Origin: a virus
Reading direction: 5' to 3' (one strand)
Virus record (IMG/VR): IMGVR_UViG_3300027734_000038
DNA: 64,000 bases
The translations under genes and the position numbers were made by a program. How positions within the stretch are numbered: the stretch's first letter is position 1; every line of letters starts with the position of its first letter. Positions 30,394 through 55,151 of the stretch are shown here, piece by piece. The notes beneath the pieces were generated by a model. The model was not told the origin of the DNA. It saw nothing but the letters and a program-made list of their open reading frames with translations, and made no database searches.

Positions 30394-31533
30394 TTGGCAA
30401 CCAGCTCAAACTTTGTCGTTAAAAATGGCCTATCCGTAGGCGCAAATGCCGTTATTGCAGCTAACGGTGCGTGGATTGGTGCCAACACAAACCTCATCGG
30501 TGCAACTGGTCCTACAGGTGCCACAGGTCCACAAGGTGCAACTGGTTTTGGTGCTACTGGTGCTACAGGTATTATTGCACCTTGGATTTATATCACATCT
30601 ACAACCTCTGCGGTTGCAAATACTCAATATATCGCCAATACTGTTGGTGGTTCTTTCACTCTCACACTTCCATCTACACCAGTTTTAGGTACAACCATTG
30701 TTGTTACTGATGGTGGAAATTGGGGTAATAATAATCTCACAATCGGTCGTAACGGAAAAACAATTGAAGGTGATGCTTCTGATTTAATCTGTGATGTAGG
30801 TCAGACAACTATTCAGTTAATCTATGATAACATTACATGGCAGACAACTGCAACTATTGGTTCAAAAGGTGCTACTGGTATTACTGGTGCAACTGGTGTG
30901 CCGGCTGCATGGGCATATATCACAGCTAATACAAATGCTGGTGCCAACTCTCAATACATTGCTAATACAACAGGCGGTGCGTTTACATTAACACTACCTG
31001 CAACACCAGTAATTGGCACAACAGTAACAATTACCGATGGTGGTGATTGGGGTGTAAACAATTTAACTATTGCAAGAAATGGTTCTACAATTGAAGGTGT
31101 TGCTGATAATGTGGCGTTGAATCTTCCGTCAACATTAGTATACTTCATATATACTGGTACAACTTGGCAAGTAGTTACGACTGCTGGTTCACAAGGTGCC
31201 ACAGGCGTTACTGGTCCAACAGGACCTTCAGGCACAAATGGTGCCACAGGTTTAACCGGACCAACCGGTCCTACAGGTCCTACCGGTCCAACAGGACCTA
31301 CAGGTGCTACAGGTGCAGGCGCAACAGGTGCCACAGGTCCTGCCGGTCCATCAACAGTATCTTCAGGTGTAATTACTCTTTCAAGTTCTACACCATTTGT
31401 TTTAAATGCCAACACAATTACGGCAGATTACACAATTCCTGGTGGTTACAATGCCTTCAATGCTGGTCCAATGACTATTGCTACTGGTGTGAATGTAACG
31501 ATTGCTACTGATGCTAATTGGGTAATCATTTAA
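30394..31533 (+). CDS. Collagen-like hub protein: NFxxKNGL N-terminus, two gp10-like domains, C-terminal GPxT...W domain
   Basis: TTG start, inferred from identity with the N-termini of 35419 and 39297. G-X-T repeats. Two YIANT.GG.FTLTLP..P..G...D...W..NNLTI.RNG.TIEG domains. Confidence 0.8.
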
Positions 31534-31542
31534 GGATAAAAT

Positions 31543-31923
31543 ATGGCCGGCACATTAACATTAGACACATTAAAAACAAGCTCAGGAGTTCTTGCAACTC
31601 AGAATGGCATGACTGGTATTGCTAAGGCATGGGTAAATTTTTCTGTTGCAGGATCGGCTTGTTCTGTAGTTTCTTCCTTTAATGTTTCTTCTGTTACATA
31701 CAATTCAGCTGGAAATTTTACTATTAATATGACAACTGCAATGCCAAATGCAAATTATACAGCAATAATAGGATCAGTAAATACTTTTGGAAGTGGTGTT
31801 TATTACGGAACTGGTGTTTTTGGAACCAATACTACAAGTAGTTTTAGTATGAGGATGGTTGGTGGTAATGGCAGTTATATTGATGGATTAAATAACGGTT
31901 ATGCAGCAGTGTTCAGTTCATAA
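31543..31923 (+). CDS. Fibre-tip protein, family A (AKAWVNF)
   Basis: AKAWVNF...FNVSSVT...G.FTIN...AMPNANY. Confidence 0.7.
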   Translation: MAGTLTLDTLKTSSGVLATQNGMTGIAKAWVNFSVAGSACSVVSSFNVSSVTYNSAGNFTINMTTAMPNANYTAIIGSVNTFGSGVYYGTGVFGTNTTSSFSMRMVGGNGSYIDGLNNGYAAVFSS

Positions 31924-31932
31924 GGATAAACA

Positions 31933-32328
31933 ATGGCAGGCACACTAACTCTCTCAACATTATCTGATGGTACAAATAGTACCTCAGCAACTAATGCCAT
32001 TCAAGGTTCTGCAAAGGTTTGGGTAAATTTTAACGGCACAGGCACAGTAGCTATTAGGGCTTCTTATAATGTATCTAGCATTACTGACAACGGCACAGGC
32101 AACTACACAGTTAATTTTACAAACGCTTTAACCGATGCTAACTATGCAGTTCATGTAACAGGCACAGAAAATAATACTGGTGAGATTGCTCGTATTGCCA
32201 CTGTTTACGGGGACGCAAGCACAGGTGCTTCAGGCAAAACATCAAGTGCAGTAAGAGTAGTTTTTGGTGCATCAAACGCCGCTACTTTTTTTGATTCTGC
32301 CGAAATGAATGTAACTTGTTTTAGATAA
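31933..32328 (+). CDS. Fibre-tip protein, family A
   Basis: AKVWVNFNG...YNVSSITDNGTGNYTVNF; paralogue of 31543. Confidence 0.7.
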   Translation: MAGTLTLSTLSDGTNSTSATNAIQGSAKVWVNFNGTGTVAIRASYNVSSITDNGTGNYTVNFTNALTDANYAVHVTGTENNTGEIARIATVYGDASTGASGKTSSAVRVVFGASNAATFFDSAEMNVTCFR

Positions 32329-32345
32329 TTTATAAAGGAAAAAAA

Positions 32346-32765
32346 ATGACACAAGTAATTATTTTTACAAACGACAATGGTGGTGTATCAGTATGCACAC
32401 CAACAGGCGAATTGCCAATCGAAGCCGTGTTAGCAAAAGATGTACCAGAAGGTCGTGGTGCTAAGATTGTTAGTAACACAGATTTACCAAACGAACACAA
32501 TGATTTCTTCAATGCTTGGGAAATGGATGATGACGGTGTTGTTACTGTTAGTCTTACCAAAGCAAAAGAACTCACTAAGGCAAGACTTCGTTTAGAAAGA
32601 ACACCTTTGTTGACTGCACAAGATGTGTTATATCAACGTGCTCAAGAAGCTAATGCTGATACTACAGCAATTGTTGCCGAGAAGAACAGACTTCGTGATA
32701 TTACTTTGTTAGCTGATGCAGCAACAACTTTAGCTGCACTAAAAGCAATCTCAGTAGAGGCCTAA
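32346..32765 (+). CDS. Putative fibre assembly/chaperone protein (family A partner)
   Basis: Acidic N-terminus, then a helical R..R.PLL..D...K.RLRDIT segment resembling tail-fibre assembly proteins. Confidence 0.55.
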   Translation: MTQVIIFTNDNGGVSVCTPTGELPIEAVLAKDVPEGRGAKIVSNTDLPNEHNDFFNAWEMDDDGVVTVSLTKAKELTKARLRLERTPLLTAQDVLYQRAQEANADTTAIVAEKNRLRDITLLADAATTLAALKAISVEA

Positions 32766-32769
32766 TAAA

Positions 32770-33273
32770 ATGTCAGTCACCATTTCTGGTAGTGGACAAA
32801 TTGTAAAACAGATTCAACAGACTGTTGTTACAACTGGATCTTTTACTTCTACATCCACATCAATGGTGGACATTACCGGTATGTCTGTAAATATTACACC
32901 TAGTAATGTTGCAAACAAAGTATTGATTACTGTATGCATGACTTATGCACAACAGTCCAACTATAATGTGGCATTTCAATTGTTAAGAAATGGAACTCCT
33001 GTAGGTATTGGCACAAGCGGAACAACAGGACCAAATTATTCTTTTATTGCTTCGCCTGCTGGAACAAATACTCCAAGTAATGTTAATTGGACTTTTTTAG
33101 ATTCACCATCTTCAACTTCTGCACTCACATATAAAATACAATGTAGGCAACAACTTGGTGGTGCAGGAACATTTGCATTAAATTTTGCAAACGGATATTT
33201 AAATGCCACTGCTGATGTATATGGTGGTTGTTATACGTCAACAATCACGGCACAAGAAATAGCATACGCTTAA
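32770..33273 (+). CDS. Fibre-tip protein, family B (DSP..T...TY, C-terminal EIA)
   Basis: ITP....KVLI; LDSPSSTSALTYKIQ; STITAQEIA. Confidence 0.7.
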   Translation: MSVTISGSGQIVKQIQQTVVTTGSFTSTSTSMVDITGMSVNITPSNVANKVLITVCMTYAQQSNYNVAFQLLRNGTPVGIGTSGTTGPNYSFIASPAGTNTPSNVNWTFLDSPSSTSALTYKIQCRQQLGGAGTFALNFANGYLNATADVYGGCYTSTITAQEIAYA

Positions 33274-33283
33274 ATAATAACAA

Positions 33284-34339
33284 ATGACAATACTACAAAG
33301 TTCTATCGCAAGTAATGTAATCTCAGGAGCCACAGGTGCCACAGGTCCTTCTGGTTCTAATGGTACCAATGGAGCTACTGGTGCAACTGGTGCATCACCA
33401 TGGTCATTGAGTGGCTCAGATACATATTACACGGTTGGTAATGTAGGTATTGGTACTACTAGTCCTGCAAGCAAATTAGATGTAAAAGCTGGTACTGGCT
33501 CTGTAATTTCTCGTTCTACTAGCGGTACAAACTTTAAAGCGTTTTACGATGATGGTAGAACTACTTACACTTCTGTAAATTATGATGGCCTTTCTACAAC
33601 AGGAGCGCAAGATTTATTGCTTAATGCTGGAACTACTGCTTCACAAAATATGTTGTTTAGAACTGCTGACACAGAACGGATGCGTATTACTTCTGCTGGC
33701 GAATTGGGCGTTGGTGTAACTCCTAAAGCTTGGACCAATATTAAGTCAATTAGTTATGGGCAAAACGGTGCAGTTTATGGTGATGGTGCTAGTTATTCTT
33801 GGGCTTCTGGTATAGCTCAGAATAGTTACAACGAAACAAACGCATGGAAATATATTGCTTCAGGTTATTCTGCTAATAGATATGAACTTTCTGGTGATAA
33901 TGGAAGTCATGTTTGGTACACCGCTGGGTCAGGCACAGCAGGCGGCACTATTAGTTTTACGGAACAAGGGCGTTTTACTAGCGCAGGTGTTTTTCAGTTT
34001 AATTCAGGTTACGGTTCATCCGCTGCAGCATATGGTTGTCGTGCATGGGTTCATTTTACTGCAAGTAATGGCACAAGAAACGGTTCAGGAAATGTAAGTT
34101 CTGTAACCAGAAATGGCACGGCTGACTACACAGTAAATTTTGCTACTGCAATGCCAGATGGTAATTATGCAATTACCGGTTGTTTAAAACCAACTTCAGG
34201 TCAAACAGGTAATAATGCTCGAGATGTTCATGTAGCAGCAGAAACAGGTGCAAGCACATCTTCATTTAGAATTAGAACTGTTACTGCTGGTGCTGGTTTT
34301 GAAGAACCGGAATATGTTTATGTAGCAGTATTCAGATAA
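33284..34339 (+). CDS. Fibre: ISGATG N-terminus, TERMRI repeat, family A tip
   Basis: GNVGIGTTSP, TERMRITS, AYGCRAWVHF...NVSSVT. Confidence 0.75.
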   Translation: MTILQSSIASNVISGATGATGPSGSNGTNGATGATGASPWSLSGSDTYYTVGNVGIGTTSPASKLDVKAGTGSVISRSTSGTNFKAFYDDGRTTYTSVNYDGLSTTGAQDLLLNAGTTASQNMLFRTADTERMRITSAGELGVGVTPKAWTNIKSISYGQNGAVYGDGASYSWASGIAQNSYNETNAWKYIASGYSANRYELSGDNGSHVWYTAGSGTAGGTISFTEQGRFTSAGVFQFNSGYGSSAAAYGCRAWVHFTASNGTRNGSGNVSSVTRNGTADYTVNFATAMPDGNYAITGCLKPTSGQTGNNARDVHVAAETGASTSSFRIRTVTAGAGFEEPEYVYVAVFR

Positions 34340-34348
34340 AAATAAAAA

Positions 34349-34987
34349 ATGACCTCATTAAGTAACTTAATATCTTCTGCAATCTCTGGTGCCACAGGTG
34401 CCGTAGGTCCTACTGGTCCCACAGGACCAAATGGTGCATCTGGTCCAGCCGGTCCTACAGGTCCATTAGGACCAACTGGTGCAACAGGCGTAACTGGTCC
34501 TACAGGACCAACTGGTGGTCAAGGTGCCACAGGTGTTACAGGTCCTACGGGTCCATTAGGACCTACAGGACCAGCTGGTGCTACTGGTCCTGCCGGTTCT
34601 GTTGGAGTTACATCCCTTAACGGACAAACTGGTGCAATTACTAATACAGACATAGATGCTATTGGTAGTGTGATTGTTGCGGTGTATGCTATTAATGCTC
34701 CTAGCACAGCACCAGGGACATATGGATGGCAAACAACTAATGCAAATACTACAGTTGCGGGTTCAAATTTACGCTATAACTTTACTATACCTACATATAC
34801 AGAAGTTGCGGGAATTAGAAGTTGGTATACAAAAAACGTAGGTAGTAATTCGCCAAGTTATAACGGTGGCGGCACATCGCTTTCAGGAACTTGGAGAACT
34901 TTAAGTTATGAAAACAGATTTGGTTCAGAAGGTGACGGTAATTGGAGTTTTAGTTGGAATCCAGTATTATGTGTAAGAGTTTCTTAA
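34349..34987 (+). CDS. Collagen-like fibre with ISGATG N-terminus and a distinct tip (SGTWR...RVS)
   Basis: Long G-X-T tract; [11 protein letters not shown]. Confidence 0.75.
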
Positions 34988-34999
34988 AAGGATAAAATA

Positions 35000-35263
35000 A
35001 TGTTTACTATTCAATATGTTAAAGATTTGCAATGGTGTGATACAGAACACACTTTTTTTACTTGCGTTGCTAAATACGAAGAATTTAACGAAGAACATCC
35101 AACTGGTGTAAATGCAACTGACCATTATGCTCATATACAAGAAATTTGGGCTAAAGGTAATGCAGGCGAATATGGGGTAATTGCTGAATACATACCGCCA
35201 CCACCTGAAATCCCACCACTTCCTGATCCCGTAGTAACACCTGAACCGCCTGTTTTGGAGTAA
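35000..35263 (+). CDS. Putative fibre assembly partner
   Basis: Small acidic ORF with GEYG.IAEY.PP and a Pro-rich tail. AAGGA RBS. Confidence 0.55.
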   Translation: MFTIQYVKDLQWCDTEHTFFTCVAKYEEFNEEHPTGVNATDHYAHIQEIWAKGNAGEYGVIAEYIPPPPEIPPLPDPVVTPEPPVLE

Positions 35264-35418: not shown

Positions 35419-36327
35419 ATGGCAACTAATTCAAACTTTAAAATCAAGAATGGCCTGACAGTCAACACGACTGATGTTATTGCTGCCAACGGAGCTTGGA
35501 TTGGTATTGCTACAAACTTAGTAGGTGGCACAGGCGCAACAGGTGTTACAGGTCCTACAGGTGCGACAGGCGTTCAAGGACTTTTAGGGCCCACAGGTCC
35601 TACTGGTGCCACGGGTATTACGGGTTCAACAGGACCAGATGGTCCAACCGGCCCAACCGGTTCTACAGGACCAACAGGTCCATTAGGTGCAACTGGTCTA
35701 ACAGGACCACAAGGTGCGACAGGCGTTACTGGTCCATCAGGTCCAGTCGGTTCAACAGGTATCACAGGACCTACTGGTCCTACAGGCCCAGCCGGTCCTA
35801 CTGGTGCAACTGGTGGTTTGCAAGCTTGGCTTGTAATTACTGCTAATACAGCTGCATCAGGCAACACACAATATATTGCTAACACAGCTGCTGGTTCATT
35901 TACATTAACATTACCTGCAACACCAAACATTGGTTCAACAGTTGCTGTTGCCGATGGTTACAGTTGGGGTGCCAACAATTTAGTTGTAGCACGCAATGGT
36001 TCTACTATTGAAAGAGTTGCAGATGATATCTCTCTCAATATTACAAACAGTTTAGTTTATTTTGTATACACAGGCGACACATGGCAGGTTGTATCTACTG
36101 CTGGTCCTGCCGGTGCAACTGGTGCTACAGGTGCAAATGGTAGTAATGGTGCTTCTGGTGCCACAGGTCCTGGTGGTTCATATACTGGATTTGTAATTCA
36201 CACAGATACTATTCAAGCAAACACAACGATTGCTTCAGGCAATAATGCCTTGTCTGTTGGACCAATCACACAAGCAAACAATGTCACAGTAACTCTTGCT
36301 AGCGGTCAACGCTGGATAGTAATCTAA
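35419..36327 (+). CDS. Collagen-like hub protein: NFxxKNGL N-terminus, one gp10-like domain, C-terminal GPIT...W domain
   Basis: Longest G-X-T tract in the window; ends [24 protein letters not shown]. Confidence 0.8.
35524..35817 (+). repeat. Collagen-like (Gly-X-Thr)n coding repeat
   Basis: About 30 GPT/GAT/GVT triplets. Similar tracts occur in 30394, 34349, 39297, 48069, 50958 and 53652. Confidence 0.9.
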
Positions 36328-36933: not shown

Positions 36934-37263
36934 ATGGAACAAGCAATTAAATTTATAGAAGCTGTCATAACATTGAGGCCAAATTCTATTGGTAAATTTG
37001 CCACTAGTGGTATTGAAATTACGGAATGGCACGATGAAAATAATATTCAGCCAACAAATGAAGAAGTCTTAGCAGAAGTTGCAAGAAAAGAATCTGAGTA
37101 TGACAACAATGAGTATCAAAGAAATAGAGCAAAAAAATATCCAGCAATTGCGGACCAACTTGATATGTTATGGCACGCAATGGATACTGGAGCATTACCT
37201 AAAGTTGATTCATTCTATGACGCCATTCAAGCCGTTAAGAATGAGTATCCTAAAGCAGAATAA
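36934..37263 (+). CDS. Putative fibre assembly partner (YQR.R..YP.I.DQLD family)
   Basis: Paralogue of 47759. Confidence 0.6.
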   Translation: MEQAIKFIEAVITLRPNSIGKFATSGIEITEWHDENNIQPTNEEVLAEVARKESEYDNNEYQRNRAKKYPAIADQLDMLWHAMDTGALPKVDSFYDAIQAVKNEYPKAE

Positions 37264-37273: not shown

Positions 37274-38194
37274 ATGAGCACAATATCAGCCGGCACAAGT
37301 AACACTACCTCACTCGTATACACAGGTGATACGACAGGTAACTTAGCGTTCCAAATTAATGGAACTACCGAAGCCATGCGTATCACTTCTGGTGGAAATG
37401 TGGGAGTTGGTACTACTAGTCCAGAAAAGAATTTTGATATTCTTGTGACTGGATCCAACCCAACATCAAATTTGCAAGTTCGAGCAAATCGCACAGGATA
37501 CGGAAATGTTAGAGCAGGACTTTCTGTTTATGCAGCAGGTAGTTCTTCTACAGACATTACAACGTTGGTTAATGAAGGCGGTGTTTTAGCATTTCAAACA
37601 GGATCTACAGAACGGATGCGTATTAAATCTACTGGTGCTGTTGTTGTTGGTAAAACAACTGAATCAGGAATGGCTACTGGCAGTTCTGTAAATATGGGTA
37701 TATGTTTAAATGATAGTGGCAATCCAGGAATCCTTACTATTCAAGAAAATACTGATGCTAATTTATATTTGTCTAAAGCAAGCGGATATTCATCAGGCAT
37801 ATATACAAGATTTTATGTAACAGGTACACAAGTAGGTAAGATTGAAAGTAACGGATCATCTACGTCTTATGTGACTTCTTCTGACTATCGTTTAAAAGAA
37901 AATATTACACCAATGATTGGTGCTTTGGCTAAAATAGCGTTGTTAAAACCTGTTACTTACAAATGGAAAGCTAACGGTTCTGCAAGTGAAGGTTTTATTG
38001 CCCATGAATTGCAAGAGGTTTGTCCAGAGGCAGTAAGTGGAAAAAAAGATGCCGTAAATAAAAATGGAGATATTGAGCCACAAGGTGTTGACACATCATT
38101 CTTAGTGGCTACTTTAACTGCCGCTATTCAAGAACTAAACGCTAAAGTAGATGCACAAGCCGCAGAAATTGCCGCATTGAAAGGAAATAATTAA
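37274..38194 (+). CDS. Fibre with TERMRI repeats and S74 chaperone
   Basis: SSDYRLKENI...GFIAHELQEV.P.AV.G.KD...LTAAIQEL. Confidence 0.85.
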   Translation: MSTISAGTSNTTSLVYTGDTTGNLAFQINGTTEAMRITSGGNVGVGTTSPEKNFDILVTGSNPTSNLQVRANRTGYGNVRAGLSVYAAGSSSTDITTLVNEGGVLAFQTGSTERMRIKSTGAVVVGKTTESGMATGSSVNMGICLNDSGNPGILTIQENTDANLYLSKASGYSSGIYTRFYVTGTQVGKIESNGSSTSYVTSSDYRLKENITPMIGALAKIALLKPVTYKWKANGSASEGFIAHELQEVCPEAVSGKKDAVNKNGDIEPQGVDTSFLVATLTAAIQELNAKVDAQAAEIAALKGNN

Positions 38195-39033: not shown

Positions 39034-39285
39034 ATGGCATTAACAAAAGAAGTAGTAATCGATAAAGTAGAAGTAGTAGAAAACGGAATTGTTCAGGTTC
39101 GTCAAGTAACACGAATCATGGAAGATGGTAATCAATTATCTTCTTCCTATCACCGTTGGACATTAACACCAGGTCAAGATGTAACTGACCAAGAATCAAA
39201 AGTTCAAGCAGTATGTAATGCTGTGTGGACAGAAGAAGTTATTGCTGCATACGAAGCACAACAAGAAGCTAACAGACCAGTTTAA
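39034..39285 (+). CDS. Putative fibre assembly partner (MALTKE...YHR family)
   Basis: ATG at 39034 with AGGAG at 39021-39025. Confidence 0.6.
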   Translation: MALTKEVVIDKVEVVENGIVQVRQVTRIMEDGNQLSSSYHRWTLTPGQDVTDQESKVQAVCNAVWTEEVIAAYEAQQEANRPV

Positions 39286-39296: not shown

Positions 39297-40106
39297 ATGG
39301 CAACTAATTCAAACTTCATAATTAAAAATGGCCTGACAGTAGGCGCTAATACTGTTATTGCCGCTAACGGTATGTGGGTTGGTGCCAACACAAATTTAGT
39401 AGGTGCCACAGGTATTGCTGGTCCAACAGGACCTACAGGTCCACAAGGTTCAACAGGTCCTGCCGGTCCAACTGGTGCAACAGGTACTATTACCGCATGG
39501 ACTAGAGTTACTGCCAATACAAATCTTACAGCCAATGCACAATACATTGCTGATACATCTGGTGGTCCTTTTACTGTAACACTACCAGCAACTCCATCTT
39601 TAGGAACTATTGAAGTTATTTCTGATGGCGCTGCATGGGGTAATAACAATCTGACAGTTGCTCGTAATGGTTCTACTATTGAAGGACAGGCACAAGATTT
39701 AATATTAAATATTTCAACTAGTTTAGTGTATTTAATTTATGATGGCACTACTTGGAATCTTACTTCGACTGCTGGTCCACAAGGTGCCACCGGTCCTTTA
39801 GGTCCTACTGGACCAACAGGTGCGACTGGTGCAGGTTCTACTGGTGCCACCGGTTCTACTGGACCTGGAGGTCCTGCCGGTCCATCCGGTCCAACAGGTC
39901 CAACTGGTGCAACAGGTGCTTTTTCTGGCACGACAGCAGCACAGATTATAACAACAAACACAACTGCAGCTACTTCTAATATAACCGGTTCTATTATTGG
40001 TGCTGGTGGTTTAGGTGTTTCAGGTAATGTTTATGCAGATGCAGTTTATTCTGGTGGTCAAGAAGTTATTGGAACAAGTCTAGCCTTTTCAATTGCTTTG
40101 GGGTGA
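39297..40106 (+). CDS. Collagen-like hub protein: NFxxKNGL N-terminus, one gp10-like domain, C-terminal AFSIALG
   Basis: Paralogous to 30394 and 35419 but with a different C-terminus. Confidence 0.8.
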   Translation: MATNSNFIIKNGLTVGANTVIAANGMWVGANTNLVGATGIAGPTGPTGPQGSTGPAGPTGATGTITAWTRVTANTNLTANAQYIADTSGGPFTVTLPATPSLGTIEVISDGAAWGNNNLTVARNGSTIEGQAQDLILNISTSLVYLIYDGTTWNLTSTAGPQGATGPLGPTGPTGATGAGSTGATGSTGPGGPAGPSGPTGPTGATGAFSGTTAAQIITTNTTAATSNITGSIIGAGGLGVSGNVYADAVYSGGQEVIGTSLAFSIALG

Positions 40107-40109: not shown

Positions 40110-40802
40110 ATGAATAGTGGAATATATTGCATAACAAATACTATAACCGGTAAAAAATATATTGGTCAAAGTAAAAATATTAAAAGAAGATTTAATAGCC
40201 ATAAAAGAGCATCTGTAACCAAGAAAAAAGGTGAATGTTTTTATTTACAAAATGCAATTGGTAAACATGGTATAGATAATTTTACTTTTGAAATATTGTT
40301 ATATGCAACAGATAGAGATTATTTAAACATTATGGAACGAAAATGTATAATTGAATTCGATACATTATCTCCTAATGGTTATAATTTGGATACTGGTGGT
40401 TATTTTAATAAAACCATTAGTGAATCAACAAGACAAAAAATGAATGGTAGAACTCCTTGGAATAAAGGTGTTCCTATGTCAGAAGAACAAAAACAAAAAT
40501 TATCTAAAATGAAAAAAGGAAAACCTGCGGCCAACAAAGGAGTTCCTGCTTCAGAAGAACAGAAAAGAAAACAATCAATTGCAATGAAAGGAAAACCTGC
40601 GGTTAATAAAGGTATTCCTATGTCTGAGGAACAAAAAAAGAAGCTTCGTAAAGCGGATAAATCTTACACTCAGACACCAGAGTATAGAAAAAAGATGAGT
40701 GAATCTCTTAAAAAAAGAGTCATTTCACCAGAGCATAGGGCAAAAATTAACGCCGGACAAAGGTTAAGAGCCGAACTAAATAGAAGTAGAAAAGGATTAT
40801 AA
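40110..40802 (+). mobile_element. Free-standing GIY-YIG homing endonuclease with NUMOD3-like repeats
   Basis: SGIYCITNTITGKKYIGQS...RR...H; E...I; NGYNL; three NKG.P.SEEQK.K repeats of ~24 aa. Confidence 0.9.
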
Positions 40803-41140: not shown

Positions 41141-42445
41141 ATGTCTTTTATTGGGAATAGTTTTACTAATCAAACATTTGTTCCACAAGTAGATTACTTT
41201 AATGGTAATGCCTCTAATACTGCATTTACTTTAAGTAGAAATGTTGCCTCAGCTGCTGATGTTCAAGTGGTTATCGAAAACGTACCACAGAATCCATCAT
41301 CAGCATTTACAGTATCAGGTAATGTAATCACATTTACTTCTGCACCACCTAGTGGCACAAACAACATCTATGTTCGTTACACAAGTCCAACAACCAATTT
41401 GGTTAAGCCGGCTCCTGGTACAGTAAGTAATACAGAAATTAGTTCTGCATTTTCTTTGTGGAATTTAAGTGGTGCTGATATTAATTATACAGCAGGTAAT
41501 GTGGGGATTGGTACTGCTAGTCCGACAGGAAAGTTAAATGTTGTTCAAAACGGAACTCCTATTATTTCTCAATTTAATAGGACTGATGCTGGAACAGGAC
41601 TTGTTATAGCTGCAGATTCTTCTGGACCATATTTTAGACCCACAACAAGTAGTGCAATTCGCTGGAATAATTCAGGTAATACAGTAGAATATATGCGAAT
41701 TGATTCTAATGGTAATATTGGTATTGGTGCTACTAGTCCTTGGTCACAAGTTTCAATGTTAACGCCAGCTGGAGGAACAGACGGATATTTTGGTGTTAAA
41801 GACACTACTTATGGTGGTGATGTTCGTTTTGGCAAAGCAAGTGGTATTAACAATAATGCAATTGCAGGAGTTTGGTCAAATAACGAATTTCTGTTTTACA
41901 CCAACGGCACAGAACGGATGCGTATTAGTTCTGGTGGTAATTTTCTTGTTGGCGGCACAACACCAATAGGAACAGATGGAAACTTATTAGCAAGCGCTGA
42001 TTACACATCAACTTATAGAAGCACAGGAACTTCTGGTGCTTATATTCATGCTTTTGCATCTGATATAGGTGGAACAAGAACAGTTAAATATGCCGTTTAT
42101 GCTAACGGAACTGTAGGCGCAGTATCAGACCAAAACTTTAAAAAGAATATTGAACCAGCTAGAAATTACCTTGCTGATTTAATGAATATTGAAGTTGTTA
42201 AATACAACTGGAAATCAGATGAAGAAAATGCACCTAAAGAATTAGGTTACATTGCTCAACAAGTAGAAACTGTTTTTGCTGGAATGGTTGATGAGCAAAC
42301 ATATAAAGATGGTAATGGCGAAGAAGTAACACAAAAAATGTTGAAGAAAGAAGTGTTTGTGCCCATGCTTCTCAAAGCAATACAAGAACAACAAGCAATT
42401 ATAGAAGATTTAAAATCTCGTATTGAAGTATTGGAGGCCAAATAA
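41141..42445 (+). CDS. Fibre: MSxIGN N-terminus, FNG..TAFT domain, TERMRI repeats, S74 chaperone
   Basis: VSDQNFKKNI...LGYIAQQVE...PMLLKAIQEQ. Confidence 0.8.
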   Translation: MSFIGNSFTNQTFVPQVDYFNGNASNTAFTLSRNVASAADVQVVIENVPQNPSSAFTVSGNVITFTSAPPSGTNNIYVRYTSPTTNLVKPAPGTVSNTEISSAFSLWNLSGADINYTAGNVGIGTASPTGKLNVVQNGTPIISQFNRTDAGTGLVIAADSSGPYFRPTTSSAIRWNNSGNTVEYMRIDSNGNIGIGATSPWSQVSMLTPAGGTDGYFGVKDTTYGGDVRFGKASGINNNAIAGVWSNNEFLFYTNGTERMRISSGGNFLVGGTTPIGTDGNLLASADYTSTYRSTGTSGAYIHAFASDIGGTRTVKYAVYANGTVGAVSDQNFKKNIEPARNYLADLMNIEVVKYNWKSDEENAPKELGYIAQQVETVFAGMVDEQTYKDGNGEEVTQKMLKKEVFVPMLLKAIQEQQAIIEDLKSRIEVLEAK

Positions 42446-43539
42446 TGGCAATCTCAAAAATAACTGCCAACTCTTTAGATAATGGTGGAGGTTCAGTTGC
42501 CACCAATACTGCGGTTGGCCAAGGAACTTTAAACTCAAATAGTTCTGGGGGTTTTAATACAGCAATGGGTTATCAAGCTGCATATAATACCACAGGTTCA
42601 AACAATACTGCAATTGGTTATCAATCACTCGTTTCAAATACCACCGCAGGAGGTAGCACTGCTGTAGGATACAGAGCACTATATTCTGCAAATAGAACTG
42701 ATGATGTAAATGGATATAACACGGCGGTTGGATACACCGCTGGGTATTCTCAAGCTACGGGACAGTTCAATGTATTTATTGGTAGAGATTGCGGGTATTC
42801 TGCAACTGGCTCTGAAAACACTTTTGTTGGGCATACATCAGGTTACTACACAACTGGAAGCTCCAACACTTTTATTGGAAAACAAGCAGGTTATCTAGTA
42901 ACAACAGGTTATAACCAAGTATTTCTTGGGAGTTTTAGTGGAAACCAAAATACATTAGATATGCGGACAGCAAGCAATACTATTGTATTGTCTGATGGTG
43001 GTGGGGTTCCAAGAGCGTGGTATCAATCCGCCAACTTTATTATTTCTCCAGTTTCTCCAACAGGTATTCAATATACTGCTGACAATGCACAATTTTATCC
43101 TTATCCAGATAACACAGCTAAATTAGGTTATCCATCATATCGATGGACTGTTGTGTATGCTGTATCAGGAACAATTAATACTTCTGATGCCAATCAAAAA
43201 CAGCAAATTCGTAGTCTTGACGAAAAAGAAAAAGCAGTGGCTACACGCATTAAAGGTTTAATTAAAGCGTTTAAATGGAATGATTCAGTTGCTGAAAAAG
43301 GCGATGGTGCTCGTATCCACGTTGGTGTAATTGCACAAGATGTTCAATCTGCGTTTATTGCAGAAGGTTTAGACCCCAGCCATTATGGTATGTTCTGTTC
43401 TGATACTTGGTATGAAGTTGATGGTAAAGCTGGAAAAGCATCCGATCCACACACAGCCGACACAGAAGGTGCGGTTGAAGTTACGCAACTTGGTGTTCGT
43501 TATGACCAACTTTTAGCTTTTGTGATATCGGCTCTATAA
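42445..43539 (+). CDS. Fibre with NTAxG (YadA-head-like) repeats and S74-like chaperone
   Basis: NTAVG/NTAIG/NTFIG repeats; TSDANQKQQI...H.GVIAQDV...GVRYDQLLAF. Confidence 0.8.
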   Translation: MAISKITANSLDNGGGSVATNTAVGQGTLNSNSSGGFNTAMGYQAAYNTTGSNNTAIGYQSLVSNTTAGGSTAVGYRALYSANRTDDVNGYNTAVGYTAGYSQATGQFNVFIGRDCGYSATGSENTFVGHTSGYYTTGSSNTFIGKQAGYLVTTGYNQVFLGSFSGNQNTLDMRTASNTIVLSDGGGVPRAWYQSANFIISPVSPTGIQYTADNAQFYPYPDNTAKLGYPSYRWTVVYAVSGTINTSDANQKQQIRSLDEKEKAVATRIKGLIKAFKWNDSVAEKGDGARIHVGVIAQDVQSAFIAEGLDPSHYGMFCSDTWYEVDGKAGKASDPHTADTEGAVEVTQLGVRYDQLLAFVISAL

Positions 43540-45666: not shown

Positions 45667-45873
45667 ATGGCACTCACAAAAATACCAGCAACAATGGTGG
45701 GTAATTCCACCGCAAATACTGCTATGTCAGTTGGTGTTCCAATTATTGAGAACACACAGACTGTTTCATATCCGTATACAATCAGCGCCAACAATTCAGC
45801 AATCTCTGTTGGTCCAATAACACTTTCAGCCAATGTAACAATTGGTTCTGGAAGTAGATGGGTAATCGTATGA
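45667..45873 (+). CDS. Minimal hub: MALTKI N-terminus plus GPIT...W domain
   Basis: Ends SAISVGPITLSANVTIGSGSRWVIV. Confidence 0.75.
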   Translation: MALTKIPATMVGNSTANTAMSVGVPIIENTQTVSYPYTISANNSAISVGPITLSANVTIGSGSRWVIV

Positions 45874-47758: not shown

Positions 47759-48055
47759 ATGAGAATCTCTAAAATTGATGCAATCTTATCTCTATCACCT
47801 GGTGCTGAAGTAGTAGTGCGTGGTGAAGAAGTAGAATGGATTAATCCTTCTACTGCACCTGTAACTGAAGCACAAATTGCTGCTGAGTTGGTAAGACTCC
47901 AAGCAGCCTACGAAGCAAAACAATATCAGCGTGACCGTGCTGGTGAATATCCAGCAATTGGTGACCAATTGGATGCTTTGTTCCATGCAGGAGTATTCCC
48001 TGAAGCCATGGCAGAAATCATTCAGGCCGTCAAAGATAAATACCCTAAATCATAA
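47759..48055 (+). CDS. Putative fibre assembly partner (YQR.R..YP.I.DQLD family)
   Basis: YQRDRAGEYPAIGDQLDAL.H...AVKDKYPK. Confidence 0.6.
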   Translation: MRISKIDAILSLSPGAEVVVRGEEVEWINPSTAPVTEAQIAAELVRLQAAYEAKQYQRDRAGEYPAIGDQLDALFHAGVFPEAMAEIIQAVKDKYPKS

Positions 48056-48068: not shown

Positions 48069-48692
48069 ATGCAATATCAAAGTTTCGTTGCTGGGTCAGG
48101 AATATCAGGTGCTACCGGTCCAACCGGTGCTACTGGTGTCATTGCACCGTGGACAAGAATCTCCGCAAATACAAGTGCTTCGGCTAATACACAGTATCTA
48201 GCCAACACAGCAACTGGTGCCTTCACTCTAACATTACCAGGTACACCATCAGTTGGTGTTATGGTAGTGATTGCTGATGATTATAACTTTGGTGCAAACA
48301 ATCTTTTTGTTGCAAGAAATGGTTCTACTATTCAAGGCATTGCTGATGACTTAGGTATTAACATCAGCAACTCATTGACAACATTGATTTATGATGGTAC
48401 TACTTGGAGAGTTTCTACAAATGCTGGACCACAAGGTGCAACTGGTGCCACAGGTCCTACAGGAACTTCTGGTACCAACGGTGCCACAGGTGCTACCGGT
48501 TTAGGTGCTACTGGTGCTACTGGTGCCAGTTTGTTTGCTGATTCCAATAATGTTATTTTTTTAAATAATACGTTGATTACTTCTAACACAACATTGCAAC
48601 CAGGTCGTGGTGCATTTTCTGTTGGACCAATCTCTGTTAATACAGGTGTTCAACTTATTGTTTCATCTAACACAAGGTATGTGGTACTATGA
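48069..48692 (+). CDS. Hub: ISGATG N-terminus, gp10-like domain, C-terminal GPIS...Y domain
   Basis: [10 protein letters not shown]; YLANT..AFTLTLP..P..G...NNL..RNGSTI.G; SVGPISVNTGVQLIVSSNTRYVVL. Confidence 0.75.
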   Translation: MQYQSFVAGSGISGATGPTGATGVIAPWTRISANTSASANTQYLANTATGAFTLTLPGTPSVGVMVVIADDYNFGANNLFVARNGSTIQGIADDLGINISNSLTTLIYDGTTWRVSTNAGPQGATGATGPTGTSGTNGATGATGLGATGATGASLFADSNNVIFLNNTLITSNTTLQPGRGAFSVGPISVNTGVQLIVSSNTRYVVL

Positions 48693-49222: not shown

Positions 49223-50322
49223 TGCCATACGGTTCAATCTCAGTAGACCAAATTAATAACACCACAGGATATTCTCTTGGTGCTGGTAACGCTTCTATTA
49301 TGAAGAATCGCATTATCAATGGTGCGATGGTTATTGACCAAAGAAATGCTGGTGCTAGTGTTACGCCAGCAAATAACACTTACACTTTAGACCGATGGAA
49401 TACTTATCAAAGCACTTCTTCTGCTTATAGTGTTCAACAAAATGCTGGTTCTGTAACACCACCATTAGGGTTTACAAACTATCTTGGCGTAACTTCTTTA
49501 GCAGCAACTTCATTATCTGCTGGAAGTTATTTTATGCTTACTCAAATTATTGAAGGATTTAATGTTGCTGATTTAGGTTGGGGAAGTGCTAACGCCAAAA
49601 CTATAACATTATCTTTTTGGGTGCGTAGTTCTTTAACTGGAACATTTGGCGGATCTTTACAAAATGGTGGAACAAGAAGCTACCCATTTACTTACACAAT
49701 TTCTGCCGCAAATACTTGGGAACAAAAATCAATTACTGTTGCAGGTGATACAAGTGGAACTTGGGCAACAGATAATACTGCTGGCATTAAATTACGAATT
49801 GGTCTTGGTGTTGGCACAACCGCAAGCACAACTGCTGGCGCATGGGCAACCGGCGATTACTATTCAGCAACAGGTGCCACTTCAATAGTAGGAACAAACG
49901 GTGCCACATTCTATATTACTGGAGTTCAGTTGGAAGTTGGAAGTGTGGCCACAGGTTATGAATATGAAAATATTGCTCAAACTTATTCAAAATGCCAACG
50001 CTATTACACAGTTTTGTTATCAGGCAACGATAAGAGTTTATGCCTTGCAACTTGGTATAACACTTCAGAATGGGATGCAGTAGTATTTTTTCCAACGATG
50101 CGGTCAGCACCTACAGCATCATCAACAACAGTATCTTCTGGATATTATTTTGATAAATTAGGTGGCAATATTACTTTTGACAATATTAGTGGTGTTTTTG
50201 GTGCTGGCTTAAATGTTGCACAACCATACAAAGTGGCATTAAGTGGCGGTGTTGCTGGTTATTGCGGAAGCATTAGAACTTTAAATGCTTCTTGTTTTAT
50301 TGCTTTAAGTGCGGAGTTATAA
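49222..50322 (+). CDS. Fibre-tip protein, family D
   Basis: Start MPYGS (TAATG overlap); KNRIINGAM.IDQRN...GVQLEVG...CQRYY...SAEL. Confidence 0.75.
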   Translation: MPYGSISVDQINNTTGYSLGAGNASIMKNRIINGAMVIDQRNAGASVTPANNTYTLDRWNTYQSTSSAYSVQQNAGSVTPPLGFTNYLGVTSLAATSLSAGSYFMLTQIIEGFNVADLGWGSANAKTITLSFWVRSSLTGTFGGSLQNGGTRSYPFTYTISAANTWEQKSITVAGDTSGTWATDNTAGIKLRIGLGVGTTASTTAGAWATGDYYSATGATSIVGTNGATFYITGVQLEVGSVATGYEYENIAQTYSKCQRYYTVLLSGNDKSLCLATWYNTSEWDAVVFFPTMRSAPTASSTTVSSGYYFDKLGGNITFDNISGVFGAGLNVAQPYKVALSGGVAGYCGSIRTLNASCFIALSAEL

Positions 50323-50323
50323 A

Positions 50324-50491
50324 ATGACCTATCAATTATCAAATTTTCGTGGCAAATTAGCTTGCATTGTAAAAACTGATGGTAACATGAAACATTTTAT
50401 TCCTTTATCGAAAGATAACACCGATTACCAAGAATATCTAAAATGGGTTGCAGAAGGTAACACACCAGAACCAGCAGAAGGCACAGAATGA
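50324..50491 (+). CDS. Small partner protein, DNTDYQ family
   Basis: Start MTYQL; DNTDYQEYLKWVAEGNTPEPA. Confidence 0.75.
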   Translation: MTYQLSNFRGKLACIVKTDGNMKHFIPLSKDNTDYQEYLKWVAEGNTPEPAEGTE

Positions 50492-50961
50492 CAACGACTA
50501 TTGACGGTAATTCAGGAGTTATATTTCCAAATAACACTACACAAGCTAGTGCTGGTCAAGTGTTGCAGGTGGTTAATGGCACTTATTCAGGCCCCTATTT
50601 TTCAACAACAAGTACCACTTTTGTATCTACTGGATTAACGGTAACTATTACACCTAAGTTTGTTACAAGTAAAATTTTATTACTTTTACAAGTTGAAGTT
50701 TATAATGATACAGCAAATAAAGGTGGTGATTTAACCATTTATAAAAATGGTGCAAATTTAGCCTCAGGTTTATTAGGAAGAATGTATCCTATTTCTGGTC
50801 AATTAGCTATTAATATTCCTATTAATTATTACGATTCGCCATCAACAACATCAGCAACAACTTATACACTTTATATTAAAACAACAAATGCTGGATATGC
50901 TTTCAATGCTTTTCAAGATGCTTTTCCATCAACAATTACTGCATTGGAAATAGCAGCATGA
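50488..50961 (+). CDS. Fibre-tip protein, family B
   Basis: GQVLQVV...ITPKF.TSKIL...DSPSTTSATTY...EIAA. Confidence 0.7.
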   Translation: MTTTIDGNSGVIFPNNTTQASAGQVLQVVNGTYSGPYFSTTSTTFVSTGLTVTITPKFVTSKILLLLQVEVYNDTANKGGDLTIYKNGANLASGLLGRMYPISGQLAINIPINYYDSPSTTSATTYTLYIKTTNAGYAFNAFQDAFPSTITALEIAA

Positions 50962-51329
50962 CAATATACTTAGGGCAAATTGCTGGTTCTGGAATATCTG
51001 GTGCAACCGGTCCTACAGGTCCAACTGGACCATCTGGTGCTACTGGTGTATTTCCAACAAGCAGTTCAGCTAACTTAGCAATCACTAATGCCAATACATC
51101 AACATCAAATACTACTGGTGCTCTGACTGTTGCAGGTGGTGTAGGTGTTACAGGTAATGTATGGGTAGATACTGTTGTTGTTACGAATGGTTTGATACTT
51201 AATTCTAACACAATAAATAGAAGTTATACAGTACCAGACAATTACAATGCTGGTTCATTTGGTCCAATCACAGTAGCAAACTCTGCGATTGTTACAGTAC
51301 CAAGTGGTTCAATTTGGACCGTGGTTTAA
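50958..51329 (+). CDS. Hub: ISGATG N-terminus plus GPIT...W domain
   Basis: [10 protein letters not shown]; ends GPITVANSAIVTVPSGSIWTVV. Confidence 0.75.
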   Translation: MTIYLGQIAGSGISGATGPTGPTGPSGATGVFPTSSSANLAITNANTSTSNTTGALTVAGGVGVTGNVWVDTVVVTNGLILNSNTINRSYTVPDNYNAGSFGPITVANSAIVTVPSGSIWTVV

Positions 51330-51338
51330 GGATAAAGA

Positions 51339-51848
51339 ATGACATTCAAAGTTGATGGATCAAACGGATTAACATTTCCAAATAACACTACACAAGCTAG
51401 TGCTGGCCAAGTGTTGCAAGTTGTTCAAGCAGAATATGCCACACAAGTATCTTTATCTTCTATAACATATACAGATACCGGATTATCCGCAACCATTACT
51501 CCTAAATTTGCAACAAGTAAAATTTTAGTTAATATAAGTCAAAATCTATACATATACAGAGAGTTTGCATTTCAATATGGATATCTTCAACTATTGAGAA
51601 ATGGTTCTGTTGCAAAAGATTTTAGATTAGTTATGAATCAAACTGCTGGAAATCCTGCTGGCGGAAGTTATCCTTACCACGACATGAGTGCGGTTGTTGG
51701 ATTAAGTTATTTGGATTCACCAGCAAGCACTTCTGCTTTAACATATAAAACACAACAAAAATGTGGAACAACAAGCAATGGCGGAACAATAATTGCTCAA
51801 ATTGATAGTGCTCCATCTTTCATTACACTTATGGAGATTGCAGCCTAA
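51339..51848 (+). CDS. Fibre-tip protein, family B
   Basis: GQVLQVV...ITPKFATSKILV...DSPASTSALTYK...MEIAA. Confidence 0.7.
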   Translation: MTFKVDGSNGLTFPNNTTQASAGQVLQVVQAEYATQVSLSSITYTDTGLSATITPKFATSKILVNISQNLYIYREFAFQYGYLQLLRNGSVAKDFRLVMNQTAGNPAGGSYPYHDMSAVVGLSYLDSPASTSALTYKTQQKCGTTSNGGTIIAQIDSAPSFITLMEIAA

Positions 51849-52399
51849 TGCCAATTAAATTACAATCTTCTTCTGGTGGTTCAGTTACTTTAGATGTGCC
51901 GGTCACAGCAAGTAACTTTAATGTAACTGTACCTAATGCTTCTGGTACTGCTATGGTTAGCGGTAATATGCCAGCGTTTAGTGCTTATAAAACTTCCCAT
52001 CAAAGTTATTCAAATAATACTTGGACAAAAATAACTTACGACACAGAAGAATATGATACCAATAGTAATTTTGCTTCAAGCACTTTTACTCCCACAGTTG
52101 CAGGGTATTATCTGTTTACTGCAAGAAACCAATTTATTGCAGATGGAGTTGCAATGGCTGAAATAAATTCAGCGTTTTTTAAAAATGGCACTATTGCTAA
52201 AACAGGAACTTATAAGTATCAACCAGCGGCACTTACTGCACAATTTGGAAGTAACATTTCTGCTGTAATTTATTGCAACGGTACAACAGATTATGTTGAA
52301 TGTTACGGAAGAACTGACGGAAGCACTTTGTATGTTTATGGTGCAGCTGGTGCGGCGCCTTACACATACTTTCAAGGCATTTTAATGAGGGCTGCATAA
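51848..52399 (+). CDS. Fibre-tip protein, family C
   Basis: MVSGNMPAFSAY...DTNSNFAS..FTPTVAGYY...NGTTDYVE...MRAA. Confidence 0.7.
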   Translation: MPIKLQSSSGGSVTLDVPVTASNFNVTVPNASGTAMVSGNMPAFSAYKTSHQSYSNNTWTKITYDTEEYDTNSNFASSTFTPTVAGYYLFTARNQFIADGVAMAEINSAFFKNGTIAKTGTYKYQPAALTAQFGSNISAVIYCNGTTDYVECYGRTDGSTLYVYGAAGAAPYTYFQGILMRAA

Positions 52400-53487
52400 T
52401 GTCGGTACAATACGGCGGAGATAAAATAACATTTGCTGATGGTTCTTCTACATCTAGTGGATATACTTTTAGAAATAGAATCATTAACGGTGCCATGGTT
52501 ATAAGCCAATATAACGGCACAAGTAGTGTATCAATAGATAACACTAAAAACCAATACTACATTGACAGATGGGCTATTCAAAACAATACTGGTTCTGCGG
52601 TGTTTTCTTATCAACAAGTTACAACTGCACCAACCGGATTTAACAATAGTTTAAAAATAACTGTTACTACTGCTGATGGTTCTTTAACTTCTACTGCTAA
52701 AGCACAAATTTATCAACCAATTGAAGGTTACAACATTGCCGATTTAGGATGGGGAACTGCCAACGCCAAATCCGTTACCTTGTCATTTTGGGTTCAATCT
52801 AGTGTAACAGGAACTTTTGGTGGTGCATTGGGCAACAATGCTAATGATAGAAGTTATCCATTTACATATACAATCTCATCAGCAAATACTTGGGAACAAA
52901 AATCAATTACCATTGCTGGTGATACAACAGGCACTTGGCTAACTACTAATGGTTTAGGCATCAATGTTGATTTTAGTTTAGGTGCTGGAACTTCTCGTAG
53001 TGGAACTGCTGGTACTTGGGGTGGTGCTTGGTACACTTCTGCTACTGGTGCAACTAATTTATTAGCTACAAACGGAGCCACATTCTACATTACTGGTATT
53101 CAGTTTGAAGTAGGAAGTTCATCAACAACTTTTGAAGCTCGTGATTACGGAAATGAATTAAGAATGTGTCAGCGGTATTATCAGTTATGTAATGGATTTC
53201 TTGGAACTCCGGGCGCTTCTACTACAATCATGTATACATCTATTCAATACCAAGTTGCAATGAGAGCAAATCCATCTTTAGGACAAACAGGAGTTATTAA
53301 TATGACTGCACCCGGTGTTGATACATGGCAACAATCTAGCACAGGTATAGCAGCTGGAGGCCAAAATACAACAGGAACATGGATTCAATTAAACAATTTT
53401 TCTGGTTTAACTCAGCATAGACCATATGTCCAGTCCGTTAATTATGCTGGCAATGGATATGTTATTACTTTATCTGCGGAGTTATGA
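52399..53487 (+). CDS. Fibre-tip protein, family D
   Basis: RNRIINGAM...IEG.N.ADLGWG.ANAK..TLSFWV...CQRYY...SAEL. Confidence 0.75.
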   Translation: MSVQYGGDKITFADGSSTSSGYTFRNRIINGAMVISQYNGTSSVSIDNTKNQYYIDRWAIQNNTGSAVFSYQQVTTAPTGFNNSLKITVTTADGSLTSTAKAQIYQPIEGYNIADLGWGTANAKSVTLSFWVQSSVTGTFGGALGNNANDRSYPFTYTISSANTWEQKSITIAGDTTGTWLTTNGLGINVDFSLGAGTSRSGTAGTWGGAWYTSATGATNLLATNGATFYITGIQFEVGSSSTTFEARDYGNELRMCQRYYQLCNGFLGTPGASTTIMYTSIQYQVAMRANPSLGQTGVINMTAPGVDTWQQSSTGIAAGGQNTTGTWIQLNNFSGLTQHRPYVQSVNYAGNGYVITLSAEL

Positions 53488-53648
53488 TGATTTATAAATT
53501 AATGAATGTAATGGGACATGAATCGGTAAGTTTATTTAAAGATACAGAATTTGTAATGAATATTCCATTTGATCCAGATAACACAGATTACCAAAAATAT
53601 CTAAAATGGGTTGCAGAAGGCAACGAACCATTACCAGCGGACGAATAA
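53484..53648 (+). CDS. Small partner protein, DNTDYQ family (54 aa, not in the ORF track)
   Basis: MMIYKLMNVMGHESVSLFKDTEFVMNIPFDPDNTDYQKYLKWVAEGNEPLPADE. Confidence 0.8.
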   Translation: MMIYKLMNVMGHESVSLFKDTEFVMNIPFDPDNTDYQKYLKWVAEGNEPLPADE

Positions 53649-53651
53649 TAA

Positions 53652-55151
53652 ATGCCAATCTATCAATCAGTTGTTGCGGGTTCAGGAATATCAGGTGCTA
53701 CAGGACCTAATGGTGCTACTGGCGTTACAGGACCTACAGGACCAAATGGACCAACAGGCCCAACCGGACCAGCTGGTGCTACCGGTGTAACTGGACCAAC
53801 AGGACCAGCTGGTGCTACTGGACCAAATTCAATTGCAGCTGTATCAGACCAATCAAATAGTTCTACAGGATATCTTGCATTACCGGCAGGTACATCAGGA
53901 CAAAGACCGGGTAGTTCTGCAAATGGATACACAAGATTAAACACCACCGTTGGTGCAGTAGAATCTTATTTCAATGGTAAATGGCAAGCAATTACAACTT
54001 TTGCAACGGTACCTAATGCACCAACTGCTGTATCTGCGGTTGCTGGTGATGCTCAAGCTGTAGTATCGTTTACTGCACCAGCAAATAATGGTGGATCAAC
54101 AATCACATCTTATACGGCAGTATCTTCTCCAGGTGGATTTACTGCATCAGTTTCACAATCAGGTTCAGGTAGTGTTACTGTAACAGGTTTATCAAATGGT
54201 ACTGCATACACATTTACAGTATTTGCCACAAATGCTATTGGTAGTGGTGCATCAAGTTCTGCAAGTGGTTCAGTAACACCAGTTGCACCAGTAGTTGTTT
54301 CTTCACTTATTATTGCTGGTGGAGGAGGCGGCGGAGCGTATTACCAAGCTGGTGGTGGCGGTGCTGGTGGATATATAAATTCATTTGCTTCAGAAACATC
54401 TGGTGGAAACTCAGCTACTGCGGCAAAATCAAGCGTAGCTGTTGGAACTGTTCTTACTGTAACAGTTGGCGGTGGCGGTAATGGTGGATCAGGATTAGGT
54501 TCTGTTGGTTCGCAAGGAAGTTCATCTTCTATTATTGGAACTGGAATGTCGGTGACTGCTACTGGTGGCGGATACGGTTCATCAGGCCAAAATGCAAGCC
54601 CTCCTGCTGGTGGTAATGGTGGTTCTGGTGGTGGTGGTGCTGACTATGTGCCAGGCACAGCATCTGCAGGTGGTTCTGGCATTGCTGGACAAGGATCAAA
54701 CGGGTCTGCTCCCCCTCATGCAGGTCCTTCTTATGGTTCTGGAGCTGGTGGTGGTGCAGGACAAATCGGTCAAACTGGAAGTGGTACTGTTGGCGGTGTA
54801 GGCGGTGCAGGTTTATCTTCGTCTATTACCGGAACTGCTACAACTAGAGGCGGTGGAGGTGGCGGGTCTTGTTACTCAGGTTCTGGTGGTCAAGGCGGTG
54901 CTGGTGGTTCTGGTGGTGGCGGTAACGGGTCTACTGGCGCTGGTGGCGCTGGTACGCCTAATACTGGTGGCGGTGGTGGCGGTGGTGAGCGAGGTGGGGC
55001 TGGAACAGGTGGAAATGGTGGTAAAGGAGTTGTTATTATTAGCGTGCCCACTTCGCAATATTCAGGAACATCTAGCGGAGCCTCCACAATTTCTACGGCT
55101 GGGTCAAATACTTACTTAGTATTTAATGACTCTGGAAGTTATACAGTTTAA
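53652..55151 (+). CDS. Fibre: ISGATG N-terminus, collagen tract, FN3 domain, glycine-rich tip
   Basis: P.APT.V.A.AG..A.VSFTAP..GGS.IT.Y...GL.NGT.YTF.V.A.N..G (FN3), then AGGGGGG...GGGGAGG...NTGGGGGG...GG.GVVII. Confidence 0.8.

Follow-up and report, generated by a model that had tools for sequence, protein, structure and literature searches.

The window analysed here, a stretch of 64,000 nucleotides (nt) from the IMG/VR virus record IMGVR_UViG_3300027734_000038, contains a fibre locus in which five copies of the domain XD1, a type present in T4 gp9, gp10 and gp34 and in CBA120 TSP4, occur together with five fibre proteins that begin with a short hydrophobic leader ending in ISGATG. Leader genes are coupled in the genome to collagen fibre genes that bear XD1, both in the close relatives of the window and beyond them. 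The leader fibres may be branches that are plugged onto XD1-bearing trunk fibres with XD1 as the physical socket, a reading that we favour only tentatively. Genes and proteins are designated by their start coordinates in the window and are listed in Table 1.

A regular-expression scan of all six reading frames of the window located Y[IL]A[ND]T..G.FT[LV]TLP at exactly five sites and NNL...RNG.TI at the same five, and thereby confirmed the original prediction, made from the sequence alone, that 30394 contains two copies of the domain and 35419, 39297 and 48069 one copy each. The domain comprises 93 residues. Its five copies are mutually 49–68% identical in protein and 55–70% identical in DNA and are therefore old paralogues rather than recent duplicates. 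A Pfam search of the domain-bearing proteins returned Collagen only, with no match to a T4 gp9/10 family at E < 0.1. A profile built from the five copies matches the N-terminal region of CBA120 TSP4 (TSP4-N; 3e-5), T4 gp10 (1.4e-3) and T4 gp34 (1.5e-3), and a profile of 125 sequences matches, in the PDB, residues 99–191 of gp34 at 2.1e-14, residues 92–175 of TSP4-N at 3e-14 and residues 59–146 of gp10 at 5e-10. The AlphaFold2 (AF2) model of the second copy in 30394 (XD1b), with a predicted local distance difference test score (pLDDT) of 97.3, is a two-sheet β-sandwich of ∼95 residues that superposes on XD1; the best matches by Foldseek and VIA are TSP4 XD1, gp10 and gp9, and the segments matched (TSP4 82–180, gp10 49–151 and gp9 67–167) are XD1 in each case. 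A match in sequence or fold to XD2 or XD3 (TSP4 residues ∼189–250 and ∼265–335) was not found: on chains that contain both, the structural alignment falls on residues 82–180, and a hidden Markov model (HMM) of the five copies yields a single stretch of −1.5 to 1.4 bits over the XD2 region. We conclude that the domain is XD1, corresponding to the middle domain of T4 gp9, domain 1 of gp10, the N-proximal domain of gp34 and XD1 of TSP4.

The gp10-like assignment of the original prediction thus holds at the level of the superfamily, in the profile searches as well as in Foldseek, where T4 gp9 and gp10 are both among the best matches alongside TSP4 XD1. It does not hold for the docking type, since partner binding is by XD2 and XD3 (PMC8825819, PMC11414711) and the segments matched here are XD1. 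The analogy drawn to tailspike attachment in G7C gp66 and in CBA120 TSP2 and TSP4 consequently does not carry over; the attachment sites there are XD2 and XD3, and gp66 and TSP2 have XD2 and XD3 only, without XD1 (PMC8825819). XD1 itself has been called a spacer by Chao et al. 2022 (PMC8825819), packed round the threefold axis, with a function that is not yet fully understood. The family is very large, with 9,448 matches at E ≤ 0.001 among 1.84 billion representative proteins and up to 23–24 copies in one protein (23 in P0003).

The three XD1 proteins that have no leader (30394, 35419 and 39297) share an N-terminus of ∼35 residues, MATNSNFxxKNGL... (KNGL type), and their collagen stalks are built of Gly-X-Thr and interrupted by one or two XD1 knobs. 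The first XD1 follows an anchor and a collagen run in all four XD1-bearing proteins of the window, and in database relatives it likewise follows the anchor, behind KNGL, Mtd_N or leader N-termini. Collagen (PF01391) is detected above the Pfam cut-off in 30394, 35419, 39297 and 34349, while 48069, 33284 and 50958 have short runs that score below it; 53652 has no Pfam Collagen match and its Gly-X-Y run is visible in the translation only. 30394 additionally matches PHROGs 972 (gp34-like), 9648 and 31104.

The six frames contain the motif ISGATG at exactly five sites, each of them at residues 12–18 of an open reading frame (ORF), in agreement with the five N-termini originally described (33284, 34349, 48069, 50958 and 53652); the looser motif [ST]GATG gives 38 matches in the same scan. 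In all five proteins ISGATG is the starting point of a Gly-X-Y collagen run; the leader is a hydrophobic segment of 11–12 residues running straight into the collagen helix, with no N-terminal domain match in Pfam or PHROGs. Two groups of leaders can be distinguished: those of 33284 and 34349 (xSxIxSxxISGATG) and those of 48069, 50958 and 53652. The peptides are conserved in spite of a DNA identity of only 54–81% and have therefore been kept by selection and not by recent copying; this comparison shows purifying selection on the leader as an N-terminal module. Leader-type N-termini, in which a hydrophobic pattern is followed by collagen, form a widespread class across lineages. In an AF2 monomer of the N-terminus of 48069 the leader is disordered (pLDDT < 50) and does not dock in cis within the single chain, for which a trimer would be needed to judge; a trimer of leader peptides would be the sole plausible means of attachment of the five leader fibres. 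The arrangement of the genes is also as had been described, since 30394 is followed by 31543, 31933, 32346 and 32770 and then by the two leader genes 33284 and 34349, and 48069 has both a leader and an XD1. The largest leader protein, 53652, matches fn3 and Gly_rich_2 (PF21722) in Pfam and PHROG 2295. The leader is retained in its orthologues in relatives, whose C-terminal bodies differ (349–499 residues).

The numbers of XD1 copies and leaders were compared within a clade formed by the window and contigs G001, G018, G019, G020, G022 and G006. The XD1:leader count is 5:5 in the window and 3:3 in G001, a 66-kb viral contig that shares synteny with the window between the Mtd_N fibre and gp13 and in which XD1 is arranged as two plus one, with the two-XD1 fibre again preceding two leader genes. 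It is 1:1 in G019, where the locus is complete from the P4H-like gene to gp13, and also 1:1 in G020 and G022. G018 has three XD1 copies and at least two leaders on a contig that ends inside the locus. Twelve relatives anchored on gp13, including three near-complete genomes, contain no XD1 at E ≤ 0.001, and G006 (0:0) is the only one of them that is usable for counts. Differences between clade members are matched on the two sides. Of the 35419-type adaptors, those of the window, G001 and G018 contain XD1 and that of G019 does not, and the 53652-type leader fibre is also missing from G019; the 39297-type fibre carries XD1 in the window only, its orthologues in G001 and G018 being without it, and the extra leader fibres are likewise confined to the window. 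In the XD1 tree, the sole XD1 of G019 is orthologous to XD1a of 30394, and the leader that G019 has kept is of type 1b. In G001 (contig positions 39202–40053) and G018 the orthologue of the 39297 XD1 is located on another trunk, the 35419-type adaptor (support 97/93), and the leader fibre of the 53652 type is retained. XD1 modules are therefore transferred from one fibre gene to another. The matched gains and losses and the XD1 tree, which permits XD1 types to be assigned consistently to leader types, fit a pairing that acts at the level of the domain and is specific to its type.

Outside the clade, an independent sample was anchored on the P4H-like gene and chosen regardless of XD1 and leader. 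Leader fibres are present in five of its six XD1-bearing lineages and in one of its 11 XD1-free collagen-fibre lineages (Fisher p = 0.005). A second set comprised the 17 XD1-anchored lineages whose flanks extend for at least 6 kb in both directions; a leader gene is present in 15 of them, and the numbers of the two elements are correlated (Spearman 0.54, p = 0.025). In several virion types that are unrelated to one another, the leader gene typically lies directly 3' of the XD1 fibre gene. Four lineages have the 2:2 relation for multi-XD1 fibres, namely the window group, L295, L298/L312 and L326. A degenerate DNA search for the type-2 leader gave 98 matches, mostly chance or internal collagen sites, and nine true N-terminal leaders, of which eight are in close relatives and the other is in the L183 lineage, with one XD1 fibre and one leader gene. 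In L156 a leader is present with no XD1 within 14.6 kb. The genomic coupling of leader genes with XD1-bearing collagen fibre genes is real.

According to the mechanism that we propose, the trunk fibres 30394, 35419 and 39297 would be anchored by their KNGL N-terminus and the five leader fibres would be secondary (branch) fibres carried on XD1-bearing stalks. The XD1 knob would be the most likely socket for the leader plug, and 48069, with plug and socket in one protein, would extend the tree. We infer both that docking is physical and that its site on the trunk is XD1 and no other part. The unexpected binding of TSP2 to an AD-XD1 fragment of TSP4 (PMC8825819) is counted in favour of docking on XD1. 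A trimer-plus-trimer complex prediction with three copies each of residues 36–290 of 30394 and residues 1–45 of 33284, run with alignments and without controls, had a score of 0.06 (mark 0.32) and bears neither way. An extension that we regard as possible, if not probable, would make XD1 a general socket for short hydrophobic leaders with a type-specific code (XD1a with leader 1b, XD1b with leader 1a and the 39297-type XD1 with the 53652-type leader), in which 48069-like proteins would serve as extenders and aquatic phages could assemble tree-like fibres and reshuffle them.

A number of findings weigh against docking on XD1, and several of them favour a different explanation, in which XD1 is an in-line collar or spacer, the leader fibres dock elsewhere (on the baseplate, on another part of the trunk or on an adaptor), both elements travel in one mobile cassette of fibre genes and the equal count of five is a coincidence. 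We consider this a possibility to be taken seriously, if not a probable one. Docking has been established for XD2 and XD3 only, and XD1 is described in TSP4, gp10 and gp9 as a spacer round the threefold axis without a free trimeric face (PMC8825819). XD1 occurs in tandem arrays of up to 23 copies per protein and its 9,448 representative proteins include many without collagen. It adjoins N-terminal anchors of three different kinds (KNGL, Mtd_N and leader), a position that suits a proximal collar as well as a socket. Exact equality of the counts is not significant outside the clade: XD1 and leaders are equal in only nine of the 17 XD1-anchored lineages (permutation p = 0.23), and among those with several XD1 copies in only two of six, the others being 3:2, 3:2, 2:1 and 2:1. 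Ratios of 2:0 are found in L323 and the L358 group and of 1:0 in L313, and there are XD1 loci without a leader gene in L025, L026, L028 and L314–316, of which L026 has six XD1 copies, no collagen and no leader gene in a genome that is 94% complete. The clearest counter-example to the coupling is G021, which has a leader and no XD1 in 80 kb (0:1), its leader fibre being the neighbour of a fibre without XD1. Many of the contigs are also fragmentary, and counts may be incomplete. A collar or spacer does not, however, account readily for the clade, where gain or loss of XD1 in orthologous fibres is matched three times by gain or loss of leader genes, or for the lack of leader genes in ten of the 11 lineages whose KNGL collagen fibres are without XD1. 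The coupling also recurs across phages with different virion modules, which makes a common baseplate site less likely. For the original prediction, which had matched each domain with one leader, the outcome is divided: counts are equal in the clade and presence and absence are associated (p = 0.005), and no 1:1 rule is found in distant lineages. One leader per XD1 would thus apply in the window's clade only. A weaker rule, by which each leader needs an XD1-bearing trunk, is sensible, and a stronger one, by which every XD1 is occupied, is not supported.

Two further explanations dispense with docking on XD1 and are less probable. XD1 knobs could be carbohydrate-binding beads by which the stalks attach weakly and multivalently to glycans of the host surface, the leader fibres being unrelated to them; we think this improbable, as sugar-binding residues were not identified, the coupling to leader genes would be left unexplained and XD1 is at the virion-proximal end in gp9, gp10 and TSP4. 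Alternatively, the leader could serve not as a docking plug but as a cap that sets the register of the collagen triple helix or nucleates it, or as a recognition tag for the neighbouring oxygenase and glycosyltransferase or for chaperones. The leader always abuts the first Gly-X-Y triplet, and a 2OG-Fe(II) oxygenase and a GT1-family transferase are encoded at the head of the locus, as such a role would suggest. The KNGL-type collagen fibres of the same loci, however, fold without a leader, loci with P4H and glycosyltransferase genes that are without XD1 are also without leaders, and the leader proteins would be left with no means of attachment to the virion, so that we regard a cap or tag as very unlikely.

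The nearest known system is the N-terminal region of CBA120 TSP4 (AD-XD1-XD2-XD3; PDB entries 7REJ, 7RFO and 7RFV), together with the branched TSP1–4 complex. Partners in CBA120 dock on XD2 and XD3 through folded heads (TD1, or D1-D2), whereas the leader proteins of the window have no folded head and the proposed plug is of ∼12 residues leading into collagen; the window fibres have no XD2 or XD3, and their XD1 is embedded in collagen stalks and can be in tandem. T4 gp10 (XD1-XD2-XD3-D4) binds gp11 and gp12 via XD2 and XD3 and has no partner assigned to XD1, and gp10, gp9 and the N-proximal part of gp34 lack collagen repeats, unlike the window fibres. G7C gp66 and gp63.1 represent the same concept, with one receptor-binding protein borne by another via a gp10-like module, although gp66 does not contain the window's domain type (PMC8825819). 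Collagen-like phage tail fibres (PF01391; PHROGs 5073, 819, 6320 and 1806) have Gly-X-Y runs in common with all eight window proteins, but these families are defined by the repeat, and neither an XD1 insert nor a short leader is described in them. Branched fibre complexes on gp10-like modules are thus already known, and what is new here is the XD1 subtype, its embedding in collagen stalks and the proposed peptide-sized plug, none of which was found described in the literature searched. Branched receptor-binding complexes permit the recognition of several hosts and are targets for host-range engineering, and the connectors understood so far are XD2 and XD3 modules only. If docking on XD1 is correct, XD1 would gain a function, the binding of TSP2 to the TSP4 AD-XD1 fragment would be explained and the build of fibre loci could be read by a simple rule throughout a very large and mostly uncultured group of aquatic phages (at least 9,448 representative proteins with XD1). 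Even with a pairing that is not physical, the annotation is corrected, the domain being of the spacer type XD1 and not of the docking type.

Table 1. Fibre proteins of the window with XD1 domains or leaders. Lengths are in amino acids (aa); domain boundaries are window nucleotides (nt).
Feature	Coordinates	Strand	Description
Trunk fibre 1	30394..31533	+	379 aa; KNGL-type anchor, collagen, XD1a, 16-aa collagen linker, XD1b, collagen, CT45 (∼50 aa adaptor)
XD1a of 30394	30583..30861	+	Orthologous to XD1a of G001/G018 and to the sole XD1 of G019 (clade support 100/100)
XD1b of 30394	30910..31188	+	Copy used for the structure model
Leader fibre, type 1a	33284..34339	+	351 aa; leader MTILQSSIASNVISGATG (nt 33284-33337), short collagen, fibre body, tip; orthologues G001 37106, G018 13539
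Leader fibre, type 1b	34349..34987	+	212 aa; leader (nt 34349-34399), ∼27 collagen triplets, C-terminal domain; orthologous leaders in G001, G018, G019
Trunk fibre 2	35419..36327	+	302 aa; KNGL anchor, long collagen, XD1 (nt 35827-36105), collagen, CT45
Trunk fibre 3	39297..40106	+	269 aa; KNGL anchor, collagen, XD1 (nt 39498-39776), collagen, different C-terminus
Leader fibre bearing XD1	48069..48692	+	207 aa; leader (nt 48069-48119), 3 Gly-X-Y triplets, XD1 (nt 48150-48428), collagen, CT45
Leader fibre, type 2	50958..51329	+	123 aa; leader (nt 50958-51011), 5 triplets, CT45 adaptor
Leader fibre, type 2	53652..55151	+	499 aa; leader (nt 53652-53705), collagen, FN3, glycine-rich domain; closes the series of fibre genes 5' of the gp13-like neck gene

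Two candidates other than XD1 were considered as partners or predictors of the leaders and rejected. CT45, a conserved domain of ∼50 residues (...N.GP......V.......W.V), forms the end of five proteins by HMM (30394, 35419, 45667–45873, 48069 and 50958). Considered as an alternative socket, it is not the better predictor: 16 of the 17 XD1-bearing loci scanned outside the clade, most of which have leader genes, are without it, and it tracks the leaders worse than XD1 does (5 versus 5 in the window and 4 versus 3 in G001). The number of KNGL fibres is constant at three in the window, G001, G019 and G020 and does not track the leaders. The CT45 proteins each precede small 'tip' genes, and the one at 45667–45873, with 68 residues, is hardly more than CT45. 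In G001, CT45 is found behind other N-termini. N-terminal plugs appear to be shuffled among CT45 adaptors.

Two contigs from the wider sets carry distinctive fibre genes. On an IMG/VR contig of 156,624 bp (L253/L294), locus positions 11753–18751 encode one fibre of 2,332 residues with ten XD1 knobs separated by collagen; at least one leader-type gene accompanies it, at the cut end of the contig. At positions 10375–12932 of G021, a contig of L250, a collagen fibre gene is present as three overlapping ORFs, possibly frameshifted, directly 5' of the gene for a leader fibre of 164 residues.

All genes between 27 and 58 kb of the window are on the + strand. Genes similar to gp13, gp14 and gp15, of which the gp13-like product is a head-tail adaptor, follow the fibre genes on their 3' side (55615–58397) and place the window, with its fibre locus, in an uncultured T4-like myovirus. 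A megablast search with 9 kb of the window against the phage collection gave zero matches, and no close cultured relative is therefore at hand; at the protein level, the XD1 domain has matches in Synechococcus, Pelagibacter and Nitratiruptor phages. The head of the locus consists of the overlapping genes for the 2OG-Fe(II) oxygenase (PF13640) and the GT1-family glycosyltransferase (28648–30356), directly 5' of the first collagen fibre, and the same pair heads collagen-fibre loci in dozens of related contigs, whether XD1 is present or absent.

Other genes are interspersed among the fibre genes. A GIY-YIG/NUMOD3 homing endonuclease gene (40110–40802; SegE-like, by Pfam) is inserted in the locus directly after 39297, and this endonuclease may drive the exchange of fibre modules. 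Three more fibre proteins (37274–38194, 41141–42445 and 42445–43539) have a Peptidase_S74 intramolecular chaperone domain at the C-terminus and N-termini of their own conserved classes (MSxISAGTSNT... and MSFIGNS...), which recur in G001, G018 and G019. The small proteins 36934–37263 (PHROG 9114) and 47759–48055 have the motif YPxIxDQLDxLxH in common and may be fibre chaperones; copies are located 3' of tip genes in every member of the clade.

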